Notes under the pieces: generated by a model
Databases searched by the model: none
Told to the model about the DNA's origin: nothing
Seen by the model: the letters and a program-made list of their open reading frames with translations, nothing else
IMG/VR virus record: IMGVR_UViG_3300045943_000001
Coordinates: 1 to 64,000 of that record
Source: a virus
Length of the DNA stretch: 64,000 nucleotides
Strand: one strand, 5' to 3'
Part shown: in pieces, positions 2-38,018 of the stretch
Layout of the letters: every line of letters starts with the position of its first letter
Numbering within the stretch: the first letter of the stretch is position 1
Translations under genes and position numbers: made by a program

Positions 2-727
2 ATAATTTCTACCTTAGGTGATAATGGAGAAAGTTCCAACATCGTTGACGGCGTGGAGTTGAAGGTATCTGTCAAATCAGCAGTATCGCTGTCACCTTAT
101 ATCGGCTTGTCACGCAAAACTGCAACTGTTACTTACGGTAAAATGGTTTTAGGTGCGGGCATCGATGCTGGATCAATTGACAATACTAATTCGTTCAACA
201 TACTTTATATGACACTGGTCGGTATATTGGGACCTAACCAGGAAAGAATGGATATGAACGATCTGACAACTGTGATCCAGTACGATACCGCAAATCGTGC
301 GCTGACAAATCCTTTTGTTATGTCAGAGCGACGCTCATCTTTGGGGTTCTCTGTGAATCTTCCTGGTGATGTCCGCTTTTCTCGATCTGAATCGAACATC
401 AGCATCACTAAAGGGGAAGAACTAGTCTATTCACTATTCAGTACTGATTCTAACGTTCTTAACCAACAAGTCAGCTTGGCGGCTAGCTTAGCGTTAGGTA
501 TGGCTGGTAGCATTGAACATCCTCCTCGTACCGTGGATGTCTCTATTGAATCCGCTATTCTTAACGGTATCCTCTATATCAAAGATGGGGATAAAGTTGC
601 CCATTATTTTGATGACGCCAGAACTCGCTCTTATATAAAGAGACAATCATCTGTTTTTGGTCAACCAAGCGGAACTTTAGATCCCTATACTGGTCGCGCA
701 ATGATGCCAGGATATTCGGGCTATTAA
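2..727 (+). CDS. hypothetical protein, 5' end outside window
   Basis: Frame is open from nt 2, with no stop before the listed GTG at 53. TAA at 725-727 overlaps the next ATG (TAATG). Confidence 0.7.
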   Translation: MISTLGDNGESSNIVDGVELKVSVKSAVSLSPYIGLSRKTATVTYGKMVLGAGIDAGSIDNTNSFNILYMTLVGILGPNQERMDMNDLTTVIQYDTANRALTNPFVMSERRSSLGFSVNLPGDVRFSRSESNISITKGEELVYSLFSTDSNVLNQQVSLAASLALGMAGSIEHPPRTVDVSIESAILNGILYIKDGDKVAHYFDDARTRSYIKRQSSVFGQPSGTLDPYTGRAMMPGYSGY

Positions 728-9163: not shown

Positions 9164-10114
9164 ATGAAACAGTTTAACATCTATGCAGTTGGCGGTACCG
9201 CAATCAAAATTACTAACCGTTACTTGAAAGACAACAAGAACGGTAAGCATATTGAAAACATTGTGGGCTTTGATAGCTCTGATGCCGATGCCGCAGCTGA
9301 TGGACTGTATCCATTAGAGCGCCTGGAAGGTGCAAGTGGCTCTGGTGGCTTTCGTCACACCCACAAAGAAAAATGGGGTGATTTCTCCAAAGCCATGTTG
9401 GCCAAATACGCACCCAACAAAACCAACATCGTGATCTTCTCAACCGGTGGCGGTACCGGTGCATCTCTGGGTCCATGGATTGTCCGTCGTATGCTGGAAC
9501 GTAAAATCCCAGTACTGGCTATCGTTGTAGGTGATAGCTCGAGCTTCAACGAACAGTCTAACACCATCGAAACCCTGGGTTCACTGTATAACCAAACTAG
9601 CCTGGGTCATCCGGTAATCTTCTCTTACCTGGAAAACAAATCTGACACCACGCACGGTGAAATCAATGCCATGGCTTGTGCCCGTATTGATAACGCCATC
9701 ATGATGTTCAGTCTGGAAAACGACAGTATCGATGAACAAGACATCAAAAACTTCTTCTACTATACCGACATCGTTTCCGCTGATCCAATCATGTCACAGT
9801 TGACCTTCCTGACTGATCAGGACGTGGGTGAGTACAAGTCTAAACCAGTGGCGGCAATCAGCTTGTTCGCTGATCCAGACAAAGTACGTTCCCCATTCCA
9901 GGACATGCTGTATCGTAAAGCAGGCGTGTTCGGTCCATCATTCCATGGGATCAATACCGGTATCCACGCAGTACTGGATCACGGCGATACCCTGGAAGGT
10001 CTGAAACGCATGATCAACGACAAGCAAGTCAAAACTGATGAACTGGCTGGTCGTTTCTCAAATCGCGGTGCTAACCCATTCGGGAACGCCAGCGGCGATG
10101 ATGGTATGATGTAA
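9164..10114 (+). CDS. phuZ: tubulin/FtsZ-family GTPase, PhuZ-like
   Basis: IYAVGGTAIK near the N terminus. STGGGTGAS at nt 9446-9466 matches the tubulin signature loop. 316 aa with an acidic C-terminal tail, host-optimal codons, aaagga RBS, and a terminator at 10123-10146. Confidence 0.85.
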   Translation: MKQFNIYAVGGTAIKITNRYLKDNKNGKHIENIVGFDSSDADAAADGLYPLERLEGASGSGGFRHTHKEKWGDFSKAMLAKYAPNKTNIVIFSTGGGTGASLGPWIVRRMLERKIPVLAIVVGDSSSFNEQSNTIETLGSLYNQTSLGHPVIFSYLENKSDTTHGEINAMACARIDNAIMMFSLENDSIDEQDIKNFFYYTDIVSADPIMSQLTFLTDQDVGEYKSKPVAAISLFADPDKVRSPFQDMLYRKAGVFGPSFHGINTGIHAVLDHGDTLEGLKRMINDKQVKTDELAGRFSNRGANPFGNASGDDGMM

Positions 10115-15388: not shown

Positions 15389-16180
15389 ATGAAAGAGAAA
15401 GAAGGTTACGTGACCATCCCCACTGAGTGGAAATTTCCCTCTATATTAGCAAGTGTCAATATCGATCCAACCAGATATTCTCATCTGTTGATTTACCAGG
15501 ATTATTGTCAGATCGTTGTAGGGCATGTGACATCTCCGTCATTAGATAAATCAGATGCCGCAACAATATTGAAAGAGCTCAAAGGACTTGTCTCATCGTT
15601 CGGATCGACGAAATCTAGACTGTCCGCAGTTAAGTATACACCAACAACGATTAAAGTAGGGCAGTGCGTACTATTAGGTCAGCCAGGTCACGACGGCCTT
15701 ATCAGGGCATTGGAACTATATGTCACCGATGGACCTTATCCCAAGAATATTCCCCACACTAACAAAATTGGCGCCGGATCAGAAATTATAGTCAAGGAAA
15801 GGGTAGGTGAGGCTAGTCTCCACTCATGGTGGGATTTTAAACGTTATAGTTTTGGATCTTCATTAGCATTAACTATCTATGGACCTTATGAAATATTTTC
15901 ATTTGGATTCAGTGACAAAACGACCATCGATAAGTTATCTGAGGCTGTTAAATGCCTGATTAAAACAGACACCAAAGAAATAAAAATAGACACTAAGTCT
16001 GAAGGGACCGATGACGTTAACCTGCGTGTGTTTAAACAGTTGGTCTGTGGTGAACCCGCTGTTTGTATTTCTACTGATATGATTATGGGTAACCAGCGCT
16101 CCCTAATCTTTATTGGGAAGGAATCAGGAACTCGATTCTTAGAGTTCTTGAAAAAAGCCAAAAGGCTGATTGAAAAATAA
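15389..16180 (+). CDS. hypothetical protein (263 aa)
   Basis: ATG (MKEKEGY...) preceded by gaggag. The track's GTG at 15359 has no RBS. Confidence 0.7.
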   Translation: MKEKEGYVTIPTEWKFPSILASVNIDPTRYSHLLIYQDYCQIVVGHVTSPSLDKSDAATILKELKGLVSSFGSTKSRLSAVKYTPTTIKVGQCVLLGQPGHDGLIRALELYVTDGPYPKNIPHTNKIGAGSEIIVKERVGEASLHSWWDFKRYSFGSSLALTIYGPYEIFSFGFSDKTTIDKLSEAVKCLIKTDTKEIKIDTKSEGTDDVNLRVFKQLVCGEPAVCISTDMIMGNQRSLIFIGKESGTRFLEFLKKAKRLIEK

Positions 16181-16203
16181 ACAATTTTATGTAAAACAAT
16201 TGA

Positions 16204-16233
16204 GAACTCTACCTGGATATCCAGGTAGAGTTC
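16204..16233. terminator. bidirectional terminator between convergent genes
   Basis: Stem gaactctacctgga / tccaggtagagttc, a near-perfect 30-nt palindrome. Confidence 0.7.
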
Positions 16234-16242
16234 AACGTTGTG

Positions 16243-17340
16243 TTATGGTTTTATGTCTTTGACAAGCGTCCAAATATCGATAAAGTGTTTCTTCCACACT
16301 GACATAGGGATTTGATTAATTTGGCTTTGTAATTGCACTTTACTGAAGTACATCGCCAGCTGTGCTTTCATCTGTCCATCCACAGAGCCTAGCAGGTTGT
16401 TATAACGAATGTACTTCTCTACCATACCCAATGAGGCCAGTGACCACACCCAACTCATCTGAACGAAGTACAGACTCTTATAGGCGTCAGGGAAGACAAG
16501 CTTGTTCATATGGACGTTCATGTTGACACGTTTATTGATCTGAACAAATTCCGTGAATGATTGCATCGGGTTTGTCTGCATCCAACGATCTTTATAATCA
16601 GTATACTCGGTAAGCTGAGTATAGTAGTTCTCCAGACTAAAACTTCCCTTAGAGATATCGATCAAAGATGTATTGCCATTAAGGTAATTAAAATTCACCA
16701 ACTCGTTGTGGTAAATATAACAATTCATTAATGGAAAGTTAGCAATATACCCGTGTGGTGAATTACCCCAATCTCCTCCGCGTTGTAGCCAGCGGTAGAA
16801 TCCGATAATCAACGCATAGACGTCCACATTGACAATTGTAAAAATAGAACTGTCTGCTTTGTAGGATTGCGTGTTGATCAAATCCATGATATCCCACCGC
16901 TGAACTGTGTCTGTGGTATAAATGGGATATAAAGGAACAAGTTCATCTAAAGGAATACTGAAGTATGCATTTATTTGTGATGGACTGGGACTGCCAAATG
17001 GAACAACCAACAACGTGTTATGATTGGACTCTGGGTAGATGGCTTCGATGTGATTCTCTCCTTTACTGTATAAAGAAGTTAAATCAACAAGACTTGCAAT
17101 CTGCTGTGAGCGAGAATGAATCTCTTCAACCAGATACTCGTTGGTCCATTCTGGATTAACAGAGAAAGACTGTAAAAACTGTACCAGTGGATTCTGGTTA
17201 GGAACGGTGCGATTCCCTAGATTGATATAGTTAAAGAAACGATCATCATTTCTTGCCATTATTCTTTCTAGGTTCACCAGTCCAGGGTACGCTTTGATTG
17301 CGTAGTTCAACCCATTAGGTTGAAGCTTTAAATAAGACAT
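16243..17340 (-). CDS. hypothetical protein (365 aa)
   Basis: Lone minus-strand gene. gagg RBS 9 nt before the ATG. Shares the bidirectional hairpin at 16204-16233 with the upstream plus-strand gene. Confidence 0.8.
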   Translation of the reverse strand: MSYLKLQPNGLNYAIKAYPGLVNLERIMARNDDRFFNYINLGNRTVPNQNPLVQFLQSFSVNPEWTNEYLVEEIHSRSQQIASLVDLTSLYSKGENHIEAIYPESNHNTLLVVPFGSPSPSQINAYFSIPLDELVPLYPIYTTDTVQRWDIMDLINTQSYKADSSIFTIVNVDVYALIIGFYRWLQRGGDWGNSPHGYIANFPLMNCYIYHNELVNFNYLNGNTSLIDISKGSFSLENYYTQLTEYTDYKDRWMQTNPMQSFTEFVQINKRVNMNVHMNKLVFPDAYKSLYFVQMSWVWSLASLGMVEKYIRYNNLLGSVDGQMKAQLAMYFSKVQLQSQINQIPMSVWKKHFIDIWTLVKDIKP

Positions 17341-17363
17341 TCGATAAACCTCATGGATTGCTC

Positions 17364-17377
17364 CGTAATTAATTACG
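17364..17377. promoter_or_regulatory. perfect 14-nt palindrome (possible operator)
   Basis: CGTAATTAATTACG, 24 nt from the ATG of the divergent minus-strand gene. Confidence 0.3.
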
Positions 17378-17387
17378 TAACATTTCT

Positions 17388-17400
17388 ATATTATGTAAAC
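17388..17400 (+). promoter_or_regulatory. candidate promoter box
   Basis: ATATTATGTAAAC. Confidence 0.3.
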
Positions 17401-17483
17401 TAATTCTTAAGGCATGTCCTTAAGGATACACGGGAGTCGTAAGTTTATTTTTTAAGTATACATACGATTTACTGTGAAAAAAT

Positions 17484-17496
17484 GTGTACCTATAAT
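17484..17496 (+). promoter_or_regulatory. candidate promoter box
   Basis: GTGTACCTATAAT; compare gTGTATAACCTATAAT at 27266-27281. Confidence 0.35.
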
Positions 17497-17507
17497 TTTA
17501 CAAGTCT

Positions 17508-17524
17508 ATATTATTATAGTGCAT
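17508..17524 (+). promoter_or_regulatory. candidate promoter box
   Basis: ATATTATTatagTGCATAG. Confidence 0.3.
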
Positions 17525-17564
17525 AGAAGACAAGATGTCATTTCATCTTTCTCCCACCATGTAA

Positions 17565-17576
17565 ATTAACGTTAAT
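17565..17576. promoter_or_regulatory. perfect 12-nt palindrome (possible operator or UTR element)
   Basis: ATTAACGTTAAT, 33 nt before the chimallin ATG. Confidence 0.25.
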
Positions 17577-17608
17577 CTATATCACGTAGTTCAATAAAGG
17601 AATTCATT

Positions 17609-19522
17609 ATGCTCGACCAACGTAACTCTTCTGACAACAACAACTCTGGTTCAAACAACTCAGGTAATAAATCAAACATGTCAAACAACCCGTTACTCGC
17701 CCTGCTGGGCACGCAGAACCTGATCTCCTCTACTAACCAGATCGCTGAAGTCAATGAAGTGATGAAAAACCTGGAAGAGACGATCGAGTCCCTGAACAAA
17801 AACACCGCGACTGATACCCAGAAACTGACTCTGCCAAAAGAAGTGCGCACCATCACTTCTGATATCTCTCCAAACCTGCCAGGTCTGACTCTGCACACCG
17901 TCATCGGTGCAACAGTCTACGTTATGCCAGTACTGTTCTACAAAGTAGGCATCACTGAAGTGACCGAATCGATCCACCTGCAAAACGAAGCTGCGGCGCG
18001 CGCAATCGCTAAACCTGCTTCTGGCTTCATGGATGCAGAACTGATTGAGAAAGTGAAAACTCAGTTCAGCTACGTTGATGGCAAACAGGTGAGCAAAGTG
18101 ATCATCCTGGCTCCGATCGTTCGTAACCTGGAACCGTACATCAAAAATCAGTTCTCTCCTGATGACATGATCGTGCAGGTACGCAACAGCATCCTGAAAG
18201 AGTGGTCAACCTCTCTGTGGAACATCGCTTCTCTGGAAGCAGCCAAAGAAGGTATCGAATTCCCGAACCCGTTCAAAGACGGTAAACTGTTCGGTAAAGA
18301 TGATGCGGCTGTGGCACGTATCGAACCAGTTAACAAACTGATCATCGACGGCGTACCAACTCCGTATAACCTGGCGGCTAAGATCTCTACCACCAACAAA
18401 AACAACACCCAGACCTCAAGCAGCACCCAGAGCCGTTCTGTTGCAACTGCACACATGACTGTTACTCTGGAAGCAATGTCTCAGAGCCAGTTCATGCAGA
18501 AGCGTGCACAACAGCCTGGTAACGTTGTAGGTCCACTGGTTCCCGTTGTTTCTACTGGTCTGACTGTTCCTGGCGAAACCCTGAACAACAACAGCTCTCT
18601 GCTGACAGCACTGCTGGGTCTGTACGCATCAATCGGTGCGAACAACATCAACTATCTGTCTGAAGCGTTCCGTGGCAAAGAAGTGGGTCACCGTGGTAAC
18701 ATCGGTAACTTCAACCACTATCTGAACCAGATGCTGGGTGCGAACTTCGGTACTGCGCAATACATCACTGACAAAAACATCACCAATGCCCAAACTGTTA
18801 ACCAGTGGCTGAGCACCTACATCGCTCCGCAAGCTGTTTACGTTCTGGACCTGTCGACGTTTACTCACGATGTTGCGAACTCCGATTTCTGGTGGTCACT
18901 GGCTGCTAAGCCTTCTGGTTCTACCTATCATCGCACACTGGTAACTCTGCTGGATGCGTTGTCTAAAGGTGAATTCAGCAAGCTGGCTCAGGCTAACGCT
19001 GCGAAAGGTCAAGCACGTAACCTGCGTACCGAATGGGCTCCAGGTGACGCTATCCTGAAAACCACCAACATCATCCTGCCGGCAGGTATCGCGATGGCTA
19101 AAGATGGTAAGTGGTTTGACCTGGCTGAAGTTGACGGCATGTTCCTGCGTCAGGATCAGTACTACGGTCAGAACGAACCAGCGATCAATGAGTATCAAGC
19201 TCTGGTCAACGGTTCTATGGGTGGCGATAACATCCGCGTTCGTCAGTACAACATCTATAACCGTTTGATGCAGCTGTTTGGCGCAAACGTAATTCTGGAT
19301 GGTTGGAACCGTCGCTTCATCTGGGAAAACAGCTTCTTCGCAACCTTCGCACAAGCAATGGCTGCGGCTGGTACTCTGTCTCTGTCTGGTTCTAATACTG
19401 CGACCATGTGGAGCATGAACACCGGTAACGATTACCTGAACTATGCTATTACTGCTCAGCTGACTCAGTCTGTACAGGCTGCTGGCTTCGGTGGCTTTAA
19501 CGGCACGTTCTCTCAGTACTAA
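17609..19522 (+). CDS. chmA: phage nuclear shell protein (chimallin) candidate
   Basis: 637 aa, in the size range of known chimallins. Disordered Asn/Ser-rich N terminus. Extreme host-optimal codon bias. Long AT-rich upstream region with multiple promoter-like boxes. Directly followed by the beta-prime N-terminal RNAP gene, as I recall for phiKZ gp54/gp55. Confidence 0.7.
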   Translation: MLDQRNSSDNNNSGSNNSGNKSNMSNNPLLALLGTQNLISSTNQIAEVNEVMKNLEETIESLNKNTATDTQKLTLPKEVRTITSDISPNLPGLTLHTVIGATVYVMPVLFYKVGITEVTESIHLQNEAAARAIAKPASGFMDAELIEKVKTQFSYVDGKQVSKVIILAPIVRNLEPYIKNQFSPDDMIVQVRNSILKEWSTSLWNIASLEAAKEGIEFPNPFKDGKLFGKDDAAVARIEPVNKLIIDGVPTPYNLAAKISTTNKNNTQTSSSTQSRSVATAHMTVTLEAMSQSQFMQKRAQQPGNVVGPLVPVVSTGLTVPGETLNNNSSLLTALLGLYASIGANNINYLSEAFRGKEVGHRGNIGNFNHYLNQMLGANFGTAQYITDKNITNAQTVNQWLSTYIAPQAVYVLDLSTFTHDVANSDFWWSLAAKPSGSTYHRTLVTLLDALSKGEFSKLAQANAAKGQARNLRTEWAPGDAILKTTNIILPAGIAMAKDGKWFDLAEVDGMFLRQDQYYGQNEPAINEYQALVNGSMGGDNIRVRQYNIYNRLMQLFGANVILDGWNRRFIWENSFFATFAQAMAAAGTLSLSGSNTATMWSMNTGNDYLNYAITAQLTQSVQAAGFGGFNGTFSQY

Positions 19523-19555
19523 TTGGTACTACCAGTTCGGTAATTAAATGAAATG

Positions 19556-19590
19556 CAAGGATAGCGGGCTTGTTCCGCTATCCTTGTTTT
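19556..19590 (+). terminator. intrinsic terminator after the chimallin candidate
   Basis: Stem caaggatagcgg / ccgctatccttg, 7-nt loop, then TTTT. Confidence 0.8.
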
Positions 19591-19609
19591 ACTTAGGGGT
19601 TTATTTTTT

Positions 19610-21202
19610 ATGTCAAACACGATGGCGGACATTCTAAATAAGTATGCTGATGAACACATGGTTCCAAGCGTATTATTTAAAAGTATTATTGAGGCAAGTG
19701 GTGTTACACCGCGGGAAGATGATCCTCAGTTCTACACTCCCCTGTATCCAGATTTTGAAGACTTTGATATCAAACATGATTTATCGATTACTCCACCGAT
19801 TTATCTGAATGACTTTGACTTCAATATCGAAGAACATCGCGAAGCTATTACTGAGTTACTTCGTACTGAGTACGAAGGTAATAACTTTGATACCGTCGCA
19901 AGCTGTAACTGTAAAAAGTATCGCAGCAATATTTATATTGGTTCTGGCTTTACGTGTGATAACTGTGGTAGCGAAGTTGTTAAACCATTGGGTCAGCGTA
20001 TTGAAACCAAAGTGTGGTTGAGAACACCGGCGTATGTGTCAGGTTTCATTAACCCTGCAATGTGGGCGATCTTCTTCAGTAAGTTGAATACCAAATCACC
20101 AAAGGTTAATTTGGTTGAATATTGGATCAACCCTACTGTGCGAGAAGAGAAACGTTTTCGTGATCCTAACAACAATGCATTTAAGATCGCGGCTAAGATT
20201 GAAAGCTTCCGTGCAACTCTGGGTATTCAGTTTGGCTATAATAGCTTTATTGATAACCTGGATCTGATTGTGATGTCTGCCATTGAGCAGGATATTAGCA
20301 AAGTACTCGATTTGACGGAGAAGGATCGTGAAGACTTTGCGGCGTTCTGGAGAGAGTTCAAGACAAAGGCCGTCTTTAGCTATCTACCACTACCAAACAA
20401 AATTACCACTGTAGTAGAATCAGATCAACGTGACCGCTATGTGAATAAAGAGCAAACCGATCTGGATAAGATCTATTTCACATTGGCTGACACGTATACC
20501 ATCGACGATGTACGTGCGTCAGAAAACGAAGACCTCATGGGTAAAAACATGAAGCCTTTGGTTGATGCATTGATGGAAGTACAGAAGAACATTTTGTTCG
20601 GTAAGAAGGGCATGATTCGATATCATGCAGGCGCGGGTAAACTCCCAATGACCGGTCGTTCTATTATCACCGGTGAATCTGGCGTGTGTCGTTCTGACAC
20701 CATTGTGTTACCGTGGTTGTATGGTTTGACGTGTCTGGACAAACATCTGACTAACTGGTTATATCGTAAAGGATATACTCCACTGAAGGTTAAGGACATC
20801 ATCAAAACAGCGAATAACTATCGTCATCCGCTGATCGAAGAGTTCTATACCTGGATTGAAACCAACCGCTTTGCTATGGCAACCGCTGGCCGAAATCCGT
20901 CTATCCAGTATTTATCAGCTCGTGCATTCTTCGTTGAGTTCTCTCGAGATCTCGATGACAAATCTATCCGTATTCCTATCACCACTGTTAAAGAATATGG
21001 TGCGGACTTTGACGGCGATGCAATGTATGTGATCTTCATTCCGGACATGATGTCTAAGATTGAAGCATATAGTAGCTGGGGACACCATCAGATGTTAGAC
21101 CCAAACAAACTTTTCATGGTAAGTCGTTTCGGTACGCACACCAAGACCAACCTGTTGAACATTAACTCGTTGTTATTGAGCGAACCAATCGAAGAGGAAT
21201 AA
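19610..21202 (+). CDS. multisubunit RNAP beta-prime, N-terminal fragment (likely the non-virion RNAP)
   Basis: CxC-x14-CxxC Zn ribbon at 19904-19966. EYGADFDGDAMYV contains the catalytic (N)ADFDGD motif at 21005-21019. Confidence 0.85.
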   Translation: MSNTMADILNKYADEHMVPSVLFKSIIEASGVTPREDDPQFYTPLYPDFEDFDIKHDLSITPPIYLNDFDFNIEEHREAITELLRTEYEGNNFDTVASCNCKKYRSNIYIGSGFTCDNCGSEVVKPLGQRIETKVWLRTPAYVSGFINPAMWAIFFSKLNTKSPKVNLVEYWINPTVREEKRFRDPNNNAFKIAAKIESFRATLGIQFGYNSFIDNLDLIVMSAIEQDISKVLDLTEKDREDFAAFWREFKTKAVFSYLPLPNKITTVVESDQRDRYVNKEQTDLDKIYFTLADTYTIDDVRASENEDLMGKNMKPLVDALMEVQKNILFGKKGMIRYHAGAGKLPMTGRSIITGESGVCRSDTIVLPWLYGLTCLDKHLTNWLYRKGYTPLKVKDIIKTANNYRHPLIEEFYTWIETNRFAMATAGRNPSIQYLSARAFFVEFSRDLDDKSIRIPITTVKEYGADFDGDAMYVIFIPDMMSKIEAYSSWGHHQMLDPNKLFMVSRFGTHTKTNLLNINSLLLSEPIEEE

Positions 21203-21204
21203 TT

Positions 21205-21867
21205 TTGAACGTAACCGCTGCCTTTATGAGAGCAACCAGTGGATCGATGACTGATGACAGCGCCGCCGTATTTGATAACTATATGGCCTCGATGTATCAG
21301 AAATATGACAATCTCACTGGTTGGCTTGGAGATACTCTCAATACCGTAAAAGACGCCCACAAGAGTTTTATGAATAGCCGTATGTGGGAATTCAGTAATC
21401 GTGTAAACGGAAAGGACGGTCAGTATGTAGGACGGTTTGAAATTGGCTATCTCTCTGAAGTCGAGTATCAGCAACAAGCTACTGGCTTTATGCGAGATTA
21501 TATCATGGCCAACCCACTGATGATGGAACTCTATCAACAAGACCGTGTATCAGGTTATGATGGTGATTTTCATGCAGCGTGTAATGGAATAGGGCGTGAG
21601 AACTATTTCTATAATCGTTCTATCGATGGCAAGGTGATTTACGATAAAGAAGAGAAATCTCTGAATCGTACCATGTTTACCAGTTCTCGAGATGACTTGA
21701 CTCACCTCACTTTCTCTGAACGTGTAGACATCCATCGTACCTGGCAAGCAACCAATCTTCATCTGGCTAAGAATCTGTTTGACCCAACTTCGGTAACAAA
21801 CGAAAAGATTCTATCATTGGAAGAAGTGGAACAGCGCCGTAAAGATCAGGAAGAGTCAGAAGAATAA
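21205..21867 (+). CDS. hypothetical protein (220 aa)
   Basis: TTG start 7 nt after gaggaa (alternative ATG at 21226). Terminator at 21875. Confidence 0.7.
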   Translation: MNVTAAFMRATSGSMTDDSAAVFDNYMASMYQKYDNLTGWLGDTLNTVKDAHKSFMNSRMWEFSNRVNGKDGQYVGRFEIGYLSEVEYQQQATGFMRDYIMANPLMMELYQQDRVSGYDGDFHAACNGIGRENYFYNRSIDGKVIYDKEEKSLNRTMFTSSRDDLTHLTFSERVDIHRTWQATNLHLAKNLFDPTSVTNEKILSLEEVEQRRKDQEESEE

Positions 21868-21932: not shown

Positions 21933-22121
21933 ATGAAAAGTGTTATTAAAGGTCGCTCGCAAATTGCCGGGACAATTTCTATTAATAGAAAACGCATGGA
22001 CACCGCATTGGCTCAAGAACATATCCAAGTTCCATCTGGATTGACGCACGAAGAAAAACGAGAGTACATCCTCAAACACTCAGGAAAAAATAATGCCGAC
22101 GATACATCAGGACGAAAATAG
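21933..22121 (+). CDS. small hypothetical protein (62 aa)
   Basis: ATG preceded by ggagaaaataATG, just after the terminator and T-run. Confidence 0.5.
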   Translation: MKSVIKGRSQIAGTISINRKRMDTALAQEHIQVPSGLTHEEKREYILKHSGKNNADDTSGRK

Positions 22122-22815
22122 TCGTATCAGAACGGTGTCAATGGACCCTAATCAATACAAGGTCTATGACAAAGATGATAAGCGTATCGCCAAGGTTGAT
22201 TTTAATACCAATGGTTTGACTGAGGAACATCTTCTCTTAATTCTTAAAGATCGCTTTAAGAATGGAAAAGATCCGATAGGAAGTCACATAAGAGATTGTT
22301 TGGATGCTGCTCTCTTTGCTGTGAGTGCAGGAAAAATTAAAAGGGCTTCAAAACTTATGTCAAACCACGGTTATGCTGAATTGCATGTCGATTTAGCCAG
22401 CGGTACAAAACTGTATAAAGACATCGTGCCAGCATGCGAAGGGATCGAAGTTATTCCGGTTAATAAACTGCATGCGACCATCATGTACGATGAAAGAAAT
22501 CCTGACATTGTTCCTTCACTGTCTAACAAGGTCTACAAGGGCCAGATTGTGGATGTACAGATGTTGGGTAAGGTTGGTTCCAAATGGCGGTCTTGTGCCC
22601 TCATATTGGAATCAGCAGCTGTGACTGAGCGACACAAAGAACTGGTCAAGGAAGGATTTAAACATTCTTACGATGACCTCTTGCTCCACGTTTCCCTGGT
22701 ATACGGTACTGATTCAGAGATTGCTTTCCCCATCATTAAGCAACTCTTTGATGAAAAGAAACTACCAGAGTCCATTACCTTATGCGCAGAGACTTGGGAC
22801 AGTATTAAAGACTGA
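22093..22815 (+). CDS. two-domain protein with C-terminal 2H-phosphoesterase-like signature
   Basis: Two hydrophobic-flanked H-x-T/S motifs 72 residues apart: LHATIMY (22471-) and LHVSLVY (22687-). This is the hallmark of LigT / 2',5'- or cyclic-nucleotide phosphodiesterases. Confidence 0.6.
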   Translation: MPTIHQDENSRIRTVSMDPNQYKVYDKDDKRIAKVDFNTNGLTEEHLLLILKDRFKNGKDPIGSHIRDCLDAALFAVSAGKIKRASKLMSNHGYAELHVDLASGTKLYKDIVPACEGIEVIPVNKLHATIMYDERNPDIVPSLSNKVYKGQIVDVQMLGKVGSKWRSCALILESAAVTERHKELVKEGFKHSYDDLLLHVSLVYGTDSEIAFPIIKQLFDEKKLPESITLCAETWDSIKD

Positions 22816-22845: not shown

Positions 22846-22853
22846 TATATTAC
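22846..22853 (+). promoter_or_regulatory. candidate promoter box
   Basis: TATATTAC in the intergenic region, 54 nt before the small membrane ORF. Confidence 0.3.
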
Positions 22854-22906
22854 CTAAGTGATAAACCTAAACAGTTTAAACTTATTTAATATAGAGAGAG
22901 GCGATT

Positions 22907-37602: not shown

Positions 37603-37628
37603 TTATAAGGCTAATTAATCTAAAACAT

Positions 37629-37646
37629 ATATTATCATTGTGTAAC
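37629..37646 (+). promoter_or_regulatory. candidate phage promoter
   Basis: ATATTATC-at-TGTGTAAC, 36 nt before ATG 37665 and downstream of terminator 37567. Confidence 0.45.
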
Positions 37647-37664: not shown

Positions 37665-38018
37665 ATGAGTAAGAAATACGCCCATTACTGTGGCATAGGG
37701 GAAACCTATCCACTGCCTGTATCGGGAGATAAAATTATCTCTGCCGGTATTAAATCAATTGGATTAGATAGTGGAGAGGTTGTTGCATTTCCCGACAACC
37801 GTAAATTTGTTCCCTCATTTGATCAATCTAAATCTGATTATATCTTGATCGCTGCTTGGGCAAGTGACGATGTAGAAGAGGAAGAAAAGATTACTCTGAG
37901 AGGGACAATCAACTTACAGGCTAAACATGTAACATTTACCGGCAAAGGTTATAAGCATGTTGAGGTCGAATATATCGTGAAGGAAGATAATTTATGGGAA
38001 TCCCTCGCCATAAACTGA
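37665..38018 (+). CDS. tandem-paralogue family member 1 (117 aa)
   Basis: ATG (MSKKYAH...) lies 36 nt after the promoter-like box at 37629. Shared core: AFPDNRKFVPSFDQSKSDYILI..W.S....I..INL....V.F.GKGY. Confidence 0.7.
   Translation: MSKKYAHYCGIGETYPLPVSGDKIISAGIKSIGLDSGEVVAFPDNRKFVPSFDQSKSDYILIAAWASDDVEEEEKITLRGTINLQAKHVTFTGKGYKHVEVEYIVKEDNLWESLAIN

Follow-up and report, generated by a model that had tools for sequence, protein, structure and literature searches.

Does the open reading frame (ORF) at positions 17609..19522 of IMG/VR virus record IMGVR_UViG_3300045943_000001 encode a chimallin, the major shell protein of the phage nucleus? The stretch that was analysed, here called the window, comprises positions 1 to 64,000 of that record. 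A preliminary description of the window, made from the letters of the sequence, had put the ORF forward as a candidate chimallin on the basis of its size, its expression signals, the gene order around it and a PhuZ tubulin gene upstream. If this proposal is correct, then similarity to known chimallins is expected in sequence profiles or in a predicted structure. If it is wrong, then either no such similarity would be found or the ORF product would clearly resemble a capsid or another structural family. The family profile, the predicted fold, the gene order, the presence of PhuZ, the codon bias and the terminator all support the proposal. The ORF is very probably the chimallin (ChmA/PhuN) orthologue of a phage in the OBP/AH04-type branch of nucleus-forming phages, a jumbo phage with Erwinia phage AH04 among its relatives.

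Family assignment and close relatives

The ORF encodes 637 amino acids (aa), as had been stated, and the argument from size for a chimallin thus holds. Among the PHROG families it matches only PHROG 4795 ('nuclear shell protein', E 2.5e-113), with residues 35-621 aligned to positions 66-651 of a profile of 677, and phiKZ gp54 matches this family too (E 1e-230). An identical protein is known from one Logan assembly contig only, where it carries a precomputed Pfam tag for PF25677 (Chimallin_Phikzvirus), and the same precomputed tag is borne by all 54 homologues recovered from a large protein collection. AH04 gp64 (YP_010667818.1; 637 aa, 87% amino-acid identity) is the nearest counterpart of the ORF product in the phage genome collection and has an identical start codon in the alignment. 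Orthologues with 61-71% amino-acid identity are found in Kosakonia phage Kc263, Pseudomonas phage OBP, Edwardsiella phage pEt-SU and Klebsiella phage N1M2. All five are labelled 'nuclear shell protein' in RefSeq, and OBP is named among the chimallin-encoding phages in a paper on the core genome of nucleus-forming phages (PMC10299810). The five agree with the window in start, flanking genes, conserved upstream region, terminator position and codon bias; they differ in being separate phages with another N-tail sequence, and they are annotated by homology only. When 1.84 billion cluster representatives were searched exhaustively with a profile, only 41 relatives were found (34 with E <1e-30), and the family is thus small and restricted to phages.

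The phage itself is absent from the deposited phage collection, and its nearest relative, AH04, is ~79% identical in nucleotide sequence over 75% of a 25-kb stretch. Therefore, it is a new species-level relative of AH04.

Chimallin homologues also occur in oddly labelled records (P0043, P0032), namely a 444-aa fragment under the fungus Astraeus odoratus and, under Salmonella enterica serovar Saintpaul, a contig of 267 kb with a full-length copy; these are probably phage DNA within cellular assemblies. Two further weak profile matches are odd in themselves: one protein, of 891 aa, is matched in 13 stretches, and the other has 5929 aa (P0083, P0090).

Relationship to chimallins of known structure

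The preliminary description had suggested comparing the ORF product with phiKZ gp54, 201phi2-1 gp105 and the Goslar chimallin, by profile or pairwise search. BLASTP to gp54 fails, whereas the comparison of profiles links the proteins. A clade profile built from 28 sequences recovered phiPA3 PhuN (E 1.3e-7) and the 201phi2-1 chimallin (E 0.085) among PDB sequences, both collinearly and the latter from C terminus to C terminus; against the single phiKZ gp54 sequence it reached only E 2e-4 and 47% probability. When aligned by hhalign to an alignment of the chimallins of 201phi2-1 (gp105), phiKZ (gp54), PhiPA3 (gp53), Goslar, RAY, Noxifer and Eowyn, it gave 99.0% probability (E 7.9e-18) over 438 collinear columns, with residues 133-613 of the query opposite 154-601 of 201phi2-1.

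The same picture emerges from the predicted structure, for which a Foldseek comparison with the published chimallin protomer had likewise been proposed. An AlphaFold2 model built on the 28-sequence clade alignment has a predicted template modelling (TM) score of 0.79. Its core has a predicted local distance difference test (pLDDT) score of ~80-93, and residues 1-41 and 598-637 have pLDDT <50. The model resembles the published protomer fold: in a Foldseek search of the PDB, ranks 1 to 9 are all chimallins (E 4.5e-21 to 9.4e-19, TM 0.70-0.78, ~570-600 columns), from entries 7sqq/7sqr/7sqs, 7sqt/7squ/7sqv, 8fne and 8igg, with 201phi2-1, Goslar and phiPA3 PhuN among them, and rank 10 falls to E 0.28. 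The predicted protomer has the two-domain fold of chimallins. In BFVD, the significant matches come from nucleus-forming jumbo phages (Aeromonas D3, Vibrio pTD1, Noxifer, Eowyn, RP12, RSF1 and Stratton) and are ~590-690 residues long, bar one 285-residue fragment. No match of the ORF to a capsid or virion structural family was found in Pfam, PHROGs, the PDB or BFVD. Thus, of the two outcomes that would have spoken against a chimallin, neither is seen: similarity to chimallins is found by PHROG profile, by profile-profile comparison and by fold, and the clear resemblance to another structural family is missing from these four collections.

Overall, the ORF product shares with the solved chimallins (201phi2-1 gp105, phiKZ gp54, phiPA3 gp53 and Goslar) the two-domain fold, collinear profile homology and the PHROG/Pfam family. 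It also shares a disordered N tail, conserved terminal segments, a downstream gene for the non-virion RNA polymerase (RNAP) beta-prime subunit, and an upstream early-promoter-like motif. The tblastn lists obtained with the ORF protein and with phiKZ gp54 have no record in common among the matches listed, which suggests that the OBP/AH04-type chimallins form a separate sequence supergroup. Three clades of chimallins are described in a recent survey (PMC12625630).

Domain anatomy and the GNAT-like domain

In the 201phi2-1 chimallin, an N tail (1-47, dispensable) is followed by an N-terminal segment (NTS, 48-61), an N-terminal domain (62-228), a C-terminal domain resembling the Gcn5-related N-acetyltransferases (GNAT-like, 229-581) and two C-terminal segments (CTS1, 590-611; CTS2, 622-631) (PMC9365700). 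The ORF product was divided by means of this map, the hhalign register, the AlphaFold2 model and conservation, and the boundaries are approximate (Table 1). The register places query residues 133-212 opposite 154-223 of 201phi2-1, residues 212-596 opposite 223-582, and residues 597-613 opposite 583-601, the last of which overlaps CTS1.

The disordered, Asn/Ser-rich N terminus that had been described is borne out by polar composition and by the low pLDDT of residues 1-41. Residues 1-26 (MLDQRNSSDNNNSGSNNSGNKSNMSN) are 73% N/S/G/T/Q, and this tail keeps its composition and length among homologues while its sequence is not kept; by position, it would correspond to residues 1-47 of 201phi2-1. The conserved segment that follows (residues 27-44) has low pLDDT in the monomer model, lies directly before the confident core and is outside the range aligned by hhalign. 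L29 and L32 are nearly invariant in the clade alignment. Going by its position only, this segment may be equivalent to the NTS. At the other end of the protein, W601, N607 and L610 are nearly or fully invariant within a region of pLDDT <50. By analogy with the solved chimallins, these terminal segments may dock onto neighbouring protomers.

The chimallin C-terminal domain has a GNAT-like fold that resembles AtaT toxins and lacks the AtaT active-site residues (PMC9365700). If the ORF encoded an active acetyltransferase or a toxin-like enzyme, then that resemblance, together with the acetyltransferases that follow the chimallins in the Foldseek ranking, would have a ready explanation. However, these acetyltransferases are the sole non-chimallin matches and are weak (Rtt109, E 0.28; KacT, E 1.2; TM <0.25), and Pfam gave no match of the ORF to an acetyltransferase family even at E up to 10. 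Additionally, the acetyl-CoA motif [QR]xxGx[GA] is absent from the C-terminal domain, its sole match being at residue 623 in the disordered tail, which is a weak test at the level of a motif. These scans of the GNAT-like domain agree with the lack of the AtaT active site reported for chimallin. In comparison to AtaT and KacT, the ORF protein retains a distant fold resemblance in its C-terminal domain. It differs from them in that its sequence and structure scores are not significant and it lacks both the acetyl-CoA motif and an antitoxin partner; it is also ~4x larger, with an extra N-terminal domain. An active enzyme of this kind is therefore most improbable, and a chimallin with a catalytically silent GNAT-like domain is preferred.

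Table 1. Positions in the window of the chimallin-like gene, its predicted parts and the features around it
Feature	Position	Strand	Basis and details
chmA-like gene, predicted chimallin (major phage-nucleus shell protein)	17609..19522	+	ATG start, 637 aa plus stop codon
Polar N-tail, residues 1-26, Asn/Ser/Gly-rich, disordered	17609..17686	+	pLDDT ~30; variable sequence
Conserved NPLLALLGTQNLISSTNQ, residues 27-44, candidate NTS-like docking segment	17687..17740	+	position and conservation only
N-terminal alpha/beta domain, residues ~45-217	17741..18259	+	pLDDT 75-95, Foldseek, hhalign
C-terminal GNAT-like domain without acetyltransferase motifs, residues ~218-595	18260..19393	+	hhalign register
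Flexible C-terminal tail, residues 596-637, two conserved segments	19394..19519	+	low pLDDT, conservation
MWxM..NDYLN, CTS1-like, residues ~597-620			aligned with 201phi2-1 583-601
GFNGxFSQY, CTS2-like, residues ~626-637			conservation
Conserved AT-rich leader/promoter region, common to chimallin gene and divergent virion gene	17380..17608	+
Leader hairpin	17406-17424
Leader block ACGGGAGTCGTA	17430-17441
Leader block CATACGAT	17461-17468
Early-promoter-like motif TATATTAT-TATAGT-G	17507..17521	+	predicted start G17521, 88-nucleotide leader
Leader palindrome TTAACGTTAA	17566-17575
Ribosome-binding site AAGGAA	17597-17602
Intrinsic-terminator-like hairpin and T-rich tail	19555..19595	+	14-bp stem, 7 G-C pairs, 19555..19587, then TTTTACTT
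RNAP beta-prime N-terminal subunit, phiKZ gp55 orthologue	19610..21202	+	phrog_2987 E 1e-142; ADFDGD motif
Divergent virion structural protein gene, position of phiKZ gp52	16243..17340	-	phrog_14481 E 6.6e-92
PhuZ tubulin gene	9164..10114	+	phrog_4733 'tubulin PhuZ' E 8.2e-80; Pfam TubZ_C_2 E 7.6e-07, above cut-off

Codon usage and terminator

The codon bias of the ORF is the most extreme among the 64 long ORFs in the window, with CTG for 91% of Leu, CGY for 100% of Arg, GGY for 100% of Gly, AAC for 90% of Asn and ATC for 92% of Ile, and its GC content is 0.50 against 0.43 for the window. That part of the preliminary description therefore stands; the preferred codons may also be host-optimal, the host being probably an Erwinia- or Pantoea-like enterobacterium. 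Compared with neighbouring genes, the same bias is seen in the chimallin genes of AH04, Kc263, OBP, pEt-SU and N1M2, and in part in phiKZ gp54. Antisense ORFs within the gene are unsupported and were taken as shadows of its strong codon bias. The second-strongest bias in the window is that of the PhuZ gene (CTG 76%, CGY 100%, GGY 90%, AAC 85%, ATC 78%), which suggests that this gene too is highly expressed.

The gene also has the strong terminator of its own that had been described, and a strong hairpin followed by a T run lies between the chimallin and beta-prime genes in all ten relatives examined (AH04, Kc263, OBP, pEt-SU, N1M2, phiKZ, Goslar, RAY, Noxifer and Eowyn). The spacer between phiKZ gp54 and gp55 (L003 7530-7923) is, at 394 nucleotides (nt), far longer than the 84-105 nt spacers in the other phages, and its predicted fold has -127 kcal/mol, a value obtained without a shuffle control.

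Upstream region and candidate early promoter

The gap before the gene (17341..17608) is exactly 268 nt long with a GC content of 0.29, compared with the window's 0.43, and thus is the AT-rich region of 268 nt that had been reported. The promoter-like boxes that had been noticed in it fared less well. Sigma-70-like sites are not enriched, with 9 in 16000-21500 against 10.9 +/- 3.6 expected from shuffled sequence, and the best such site on the plus strand (17468-17496) is only partly conserved in relatives.

A different motif, at 17507-17521, lies inside a block, AAGTCTATATTATTA, that is invariant across six phages of five genera. All 13 loci compared, including those of phiKZ, 201phi2-1, PhiPA3, Goslar, RAY, Noxifer and Eowyn, have the pattern TATATYAY-N5-TG just upstream of the chimallin gene. 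For the stricter TATATTAY-N5-TG the window has three matches, where 0.45 are expected, each of them on the plus strand and between genes. The block from AAGTCTATATTATTA to GTG has close counterparts before phiKZ-type chimallin genes, for example CAAGTCTATATTACGTATGTG in RAY and TTTATATTACTAAATTG in phiKZ, ~77-82 nt before the ATG. The motif ends in T here (TATATTAT) and in C in the phages of the solved chimallins (TATATTAC), and the leader here is ~20 nt longer.

The motif resembles the early consensus of the AR9 virion RNAP, AAATATATATTAT-(6N)-G, in which the G is the start (PMC5312081). It is also in keeping with jumbo-phage early promoters in general, which are described as AT-rich, ~10 nt long and situated near position -10 (PMC7598289). 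In phiKZ, the primary start of PHIKZ054 carries an early-promoter motif and a secondary start a middle-promoter motif (PMC8244752). Because the motif is conserved and analogous to the early promoters of AR9 and phiKZ, we infer that 17507-17521 is an early promoter of the virion-RNAP type, with transcription starting near G17521.

The two other matches to the stricter pattern are at 22846-22860, after an Acb1-like ORF, and at 37628-37642, 37 nt before the ORF 37665..38018; AH04 has a match at the place equivalent to the former (L001 17399-17413). Both are candidate early promoters. Specificity came only with the extended pattern and its downstream TG: the 9-mer CTATATTAT with one mismatch allowed is not enriched in the window (22 against 17.8 expected), and TATATTA alone gives only four plus-strand intergenic sites.

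The leader in which the motif is embedded (17380-17608) is 90% identical to that of AH04, and the mean column identity across five genera is 73%, with long invariant blocks. Its hairpin shows compensatory changes in 6 stem pairs (OBP, pEt-SU and N1M2), and an inverted repeat, GTCGTA/TACGA(T), is also present. The other conserved blocks are unique in the window, which rules them out as a general promoter motif, and Rfam gave no match for the leader or the chimallin gene. They may serve either gene of the divergent pair, chimallin or virion protein. A short upstream ORF, ATGTCATTTCATCTTTCTCCCACCATGTAA (17536-17565), was considered as a leader peptide and set aside, as its frame is not kept in AH04, where the alignment shows a 1-nt insertion.

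If the ORF encoded a capsid or other virion protein, then these expression signals could simply reflect abundance in the particle: major capsid genes, too, typically have strong codon bias and a terminator of their own, and the neighbouring gene on the minus strand encodes a virion structural protein. However, the conserved upstream motif resembles the early and not the late class of promoter, the database searches above gave no capsid or virion family, and the fold matches chimallins only. A virion protein is thus very hard to reconcile with the data and is given almost no weight, and a chimallin remains the preferred reading of the expression signals.

Gene order around the chimallin gene

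The gene that follows the ORF encodes an N-terminal fragment of RNAP beta-prime, as had been claimed: its product matches phrog_2987, carries ADFDGD and finds phiKZ gp55 by BLASTP (E 2e-30). Pfam RNA_pol_Rpb1_2 is a weak match (E 8.1e-05, 23.4 bits), just under the cut-off of 25.3 bits, and the annotation of the Noxifer orthologue reads non-virion RNAP beta-prime. The order of gp54 and gp55 is confirmed in the phiKZ record. Additionally, the PhuZ gene lies where it had been placed, 7.5 kb upstream, with its ORF ending 7495 nt before the chimallin gene; for the Pfam Tubulin GTPase domain it is sub-threshold (E 4.8e-06, 27.4 bits against a 33-bit cut-off).

In the window, a DNA polymerase gene (Pfam divDNApol, E 2e-260) and then a hypothetical gene precede the minus-strand virion protein gene, which is followed by the chimallin ORF and the beta-prime N-terminal gene; this order equals that in AH04 and that of phiKZ gp50-gp55. 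The virion protein gene has the same position and strand in AH04, Kc263, OBP, pEt-SU, N1M2 and phiKZ, and the chimallin gene is also followed by the beta-prime gene in Goslar, RAY, Noxifer, Eowyn and PhiPA3. The window thus has the gp52-gp54-gp55 neighbourhood of chimalliviruses, with split multisubunit RNAP genes; PhuZ, an optional part of it, is present as well.

Strength of the identification

Several observations weigh against the identification as a chimallin or limit its reach. A single-sequence phmmer search of PDB sequences gave chance matches only (E ~0.5), BLASTP against phiKZ gp54 was not significant, and identity to the solved chimallins in the Foldseek alignments is only 14-17%. 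The structure is a prediction from a 28-sequence alignment and not an experimental one. The NCBIfam scan of the ORF gave no match, and neither did the Pfam-A scan. For Pfam-A, two homologues that bear the PF25677 tag (P0045, P0054) likewise had no match, and the library scanned probably lacks the PF25677 model; since the scan misses the family in tagged homologues, its negative outcome is not evidence against membership. The phage is known here from sequence alone, and a non-systematic look through the literature found no shell imaging for OBP/AH04-type phages. Tail docking, lattice geometry, expression timing and promoter use are all inferred.

If the protein had the chimallin fold but another role in this clade, for instance as a scaffold or a minor shell component while the main shell is made of another protein, then the low identity to the studied chimallins, the missing BLASTP match to gp54, the tblastn lists that are disjoint among the matches listed and the lack of imaging found in that look at the literature would all be expected. 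In contrast, such a role is at odds with the ORF being the sole chimallin-like gene in the window, and with there being one place per genome for a chimallin gene in the relatives (tblastn, among the matches listed). The gene also occupies the orthologous gp54 position, between the gp52-like virion gene and the gp55 orthologue, the match is full-length and includes the tail architecture, and the expression signals are those expected of a major, abundant component. Another role is therefore improbable, though slightly less so than an enzyme or a virion protein, and the identification as the chimallin itself is retained with high confidence. We are somewhat less confident that every mechanistic detail carries over to the divergent OBP/AH04 branch.

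Proposed role of the protein

ChmA is described as highly abundant and among the first genes to be transcribed (PMC13282480), and the codon bias conserved in the orthologues fits this description. Taking codon bias and the early-promoter-like motif as proxies, the gene is probably expressed very early and very abundantly. It would be transcribed from a phage-specific promoter read by the injected virion RNA polymerase, and host ribosomes would then translate it at a very high rate, as the codon bias implies. The product has a two-domain core, an N-terminal alpha/beta domain joined to a catalytically dead GNAT-like C-terminal domain, according to structure prediction and structure comparison. 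By analogy with the 201phi2-1 and Goslar structures, it would self-assemble into a flexible lattice, in which the N-terminal segment and the two C-terminal segments reach neighbouring protomers, and so form the shell. This lattice would enclose the replicating phage DNA and keep out host nucleases, PhuZ would position the compartment, and the products of the adjacent non-virion RNA polymerase genes would act inside it.

A more specific proposal is that the OBP/AH04-type shell differs in tail docking, pore size or import, and that the leader of ~230 nt acts as an early/middle expression switch. The former is conceivable because identity to every solved chimallin is so low and there is no BLAST link, and the latter because the leader is conserved across five genera and contains the covarying hairpin, the inverted repeat and the palindrome. 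Taken together, this proposal is speculative and rather unlikely to hold.

The protein is an ordinary new chimallin of a family already annotated in close relatives, and the result is an expected one that leaves unchanged how the phage nucleus is understood at present. The window is thereby identified as belonging to a nucleus-forming jumbo phage (Chimalliviridae-type), and from the rest of the genome one can expect two multisubunit RNA polymerases, a spindle of PhuZ, factors for protein import and resistance to defences that target DNA. A residue-level domain map is now given for a chimallin branch without a solved structure. There is modest room for differences in lattice detail, because this branch is far from the solved structures, as indicated by the tblastn comparison and the three-clade survey. 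The pattern TATATYAY-N5-TG could help to find early genes in uncharacterised relatives.

Other features of the window

Comparison of the beta-prime genes shows a difference from phiKZ. In the latter (L003 7924-10762), gp55 ends at 420 aa and is followed by the HNH endonuclease gp56 and then by gp56.1, a protein of 61 aa in which the final 48 positions of the RNAP PHROG found for the window's gene are matched. The N-terminal beta-prime gene of the window is uninterrupted and encodes 530 aa, ADFDGD included. Since phiKZ gp55 is short, an HNH gene lies between it and gp56.1, and gp56.1 matches the end of the RNAP PHROG, phiKZ appears to carry an endonuclease insertion that the phage described here is without.

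Farther downstream, the plus-strand ORF at 22093-22815 (240 aa) matches Pfam PF23474, anti-CBASS Acb1, over residues 120-207 (E 1.8e-11, 44.4 bits against a cut-off of 27), and its AH04 orthologue is annotated as a phosphoesterase. This ORF is possibly an anti-defence gene of a nucleus-forming phage whose product degrades cyclic nucleotides.

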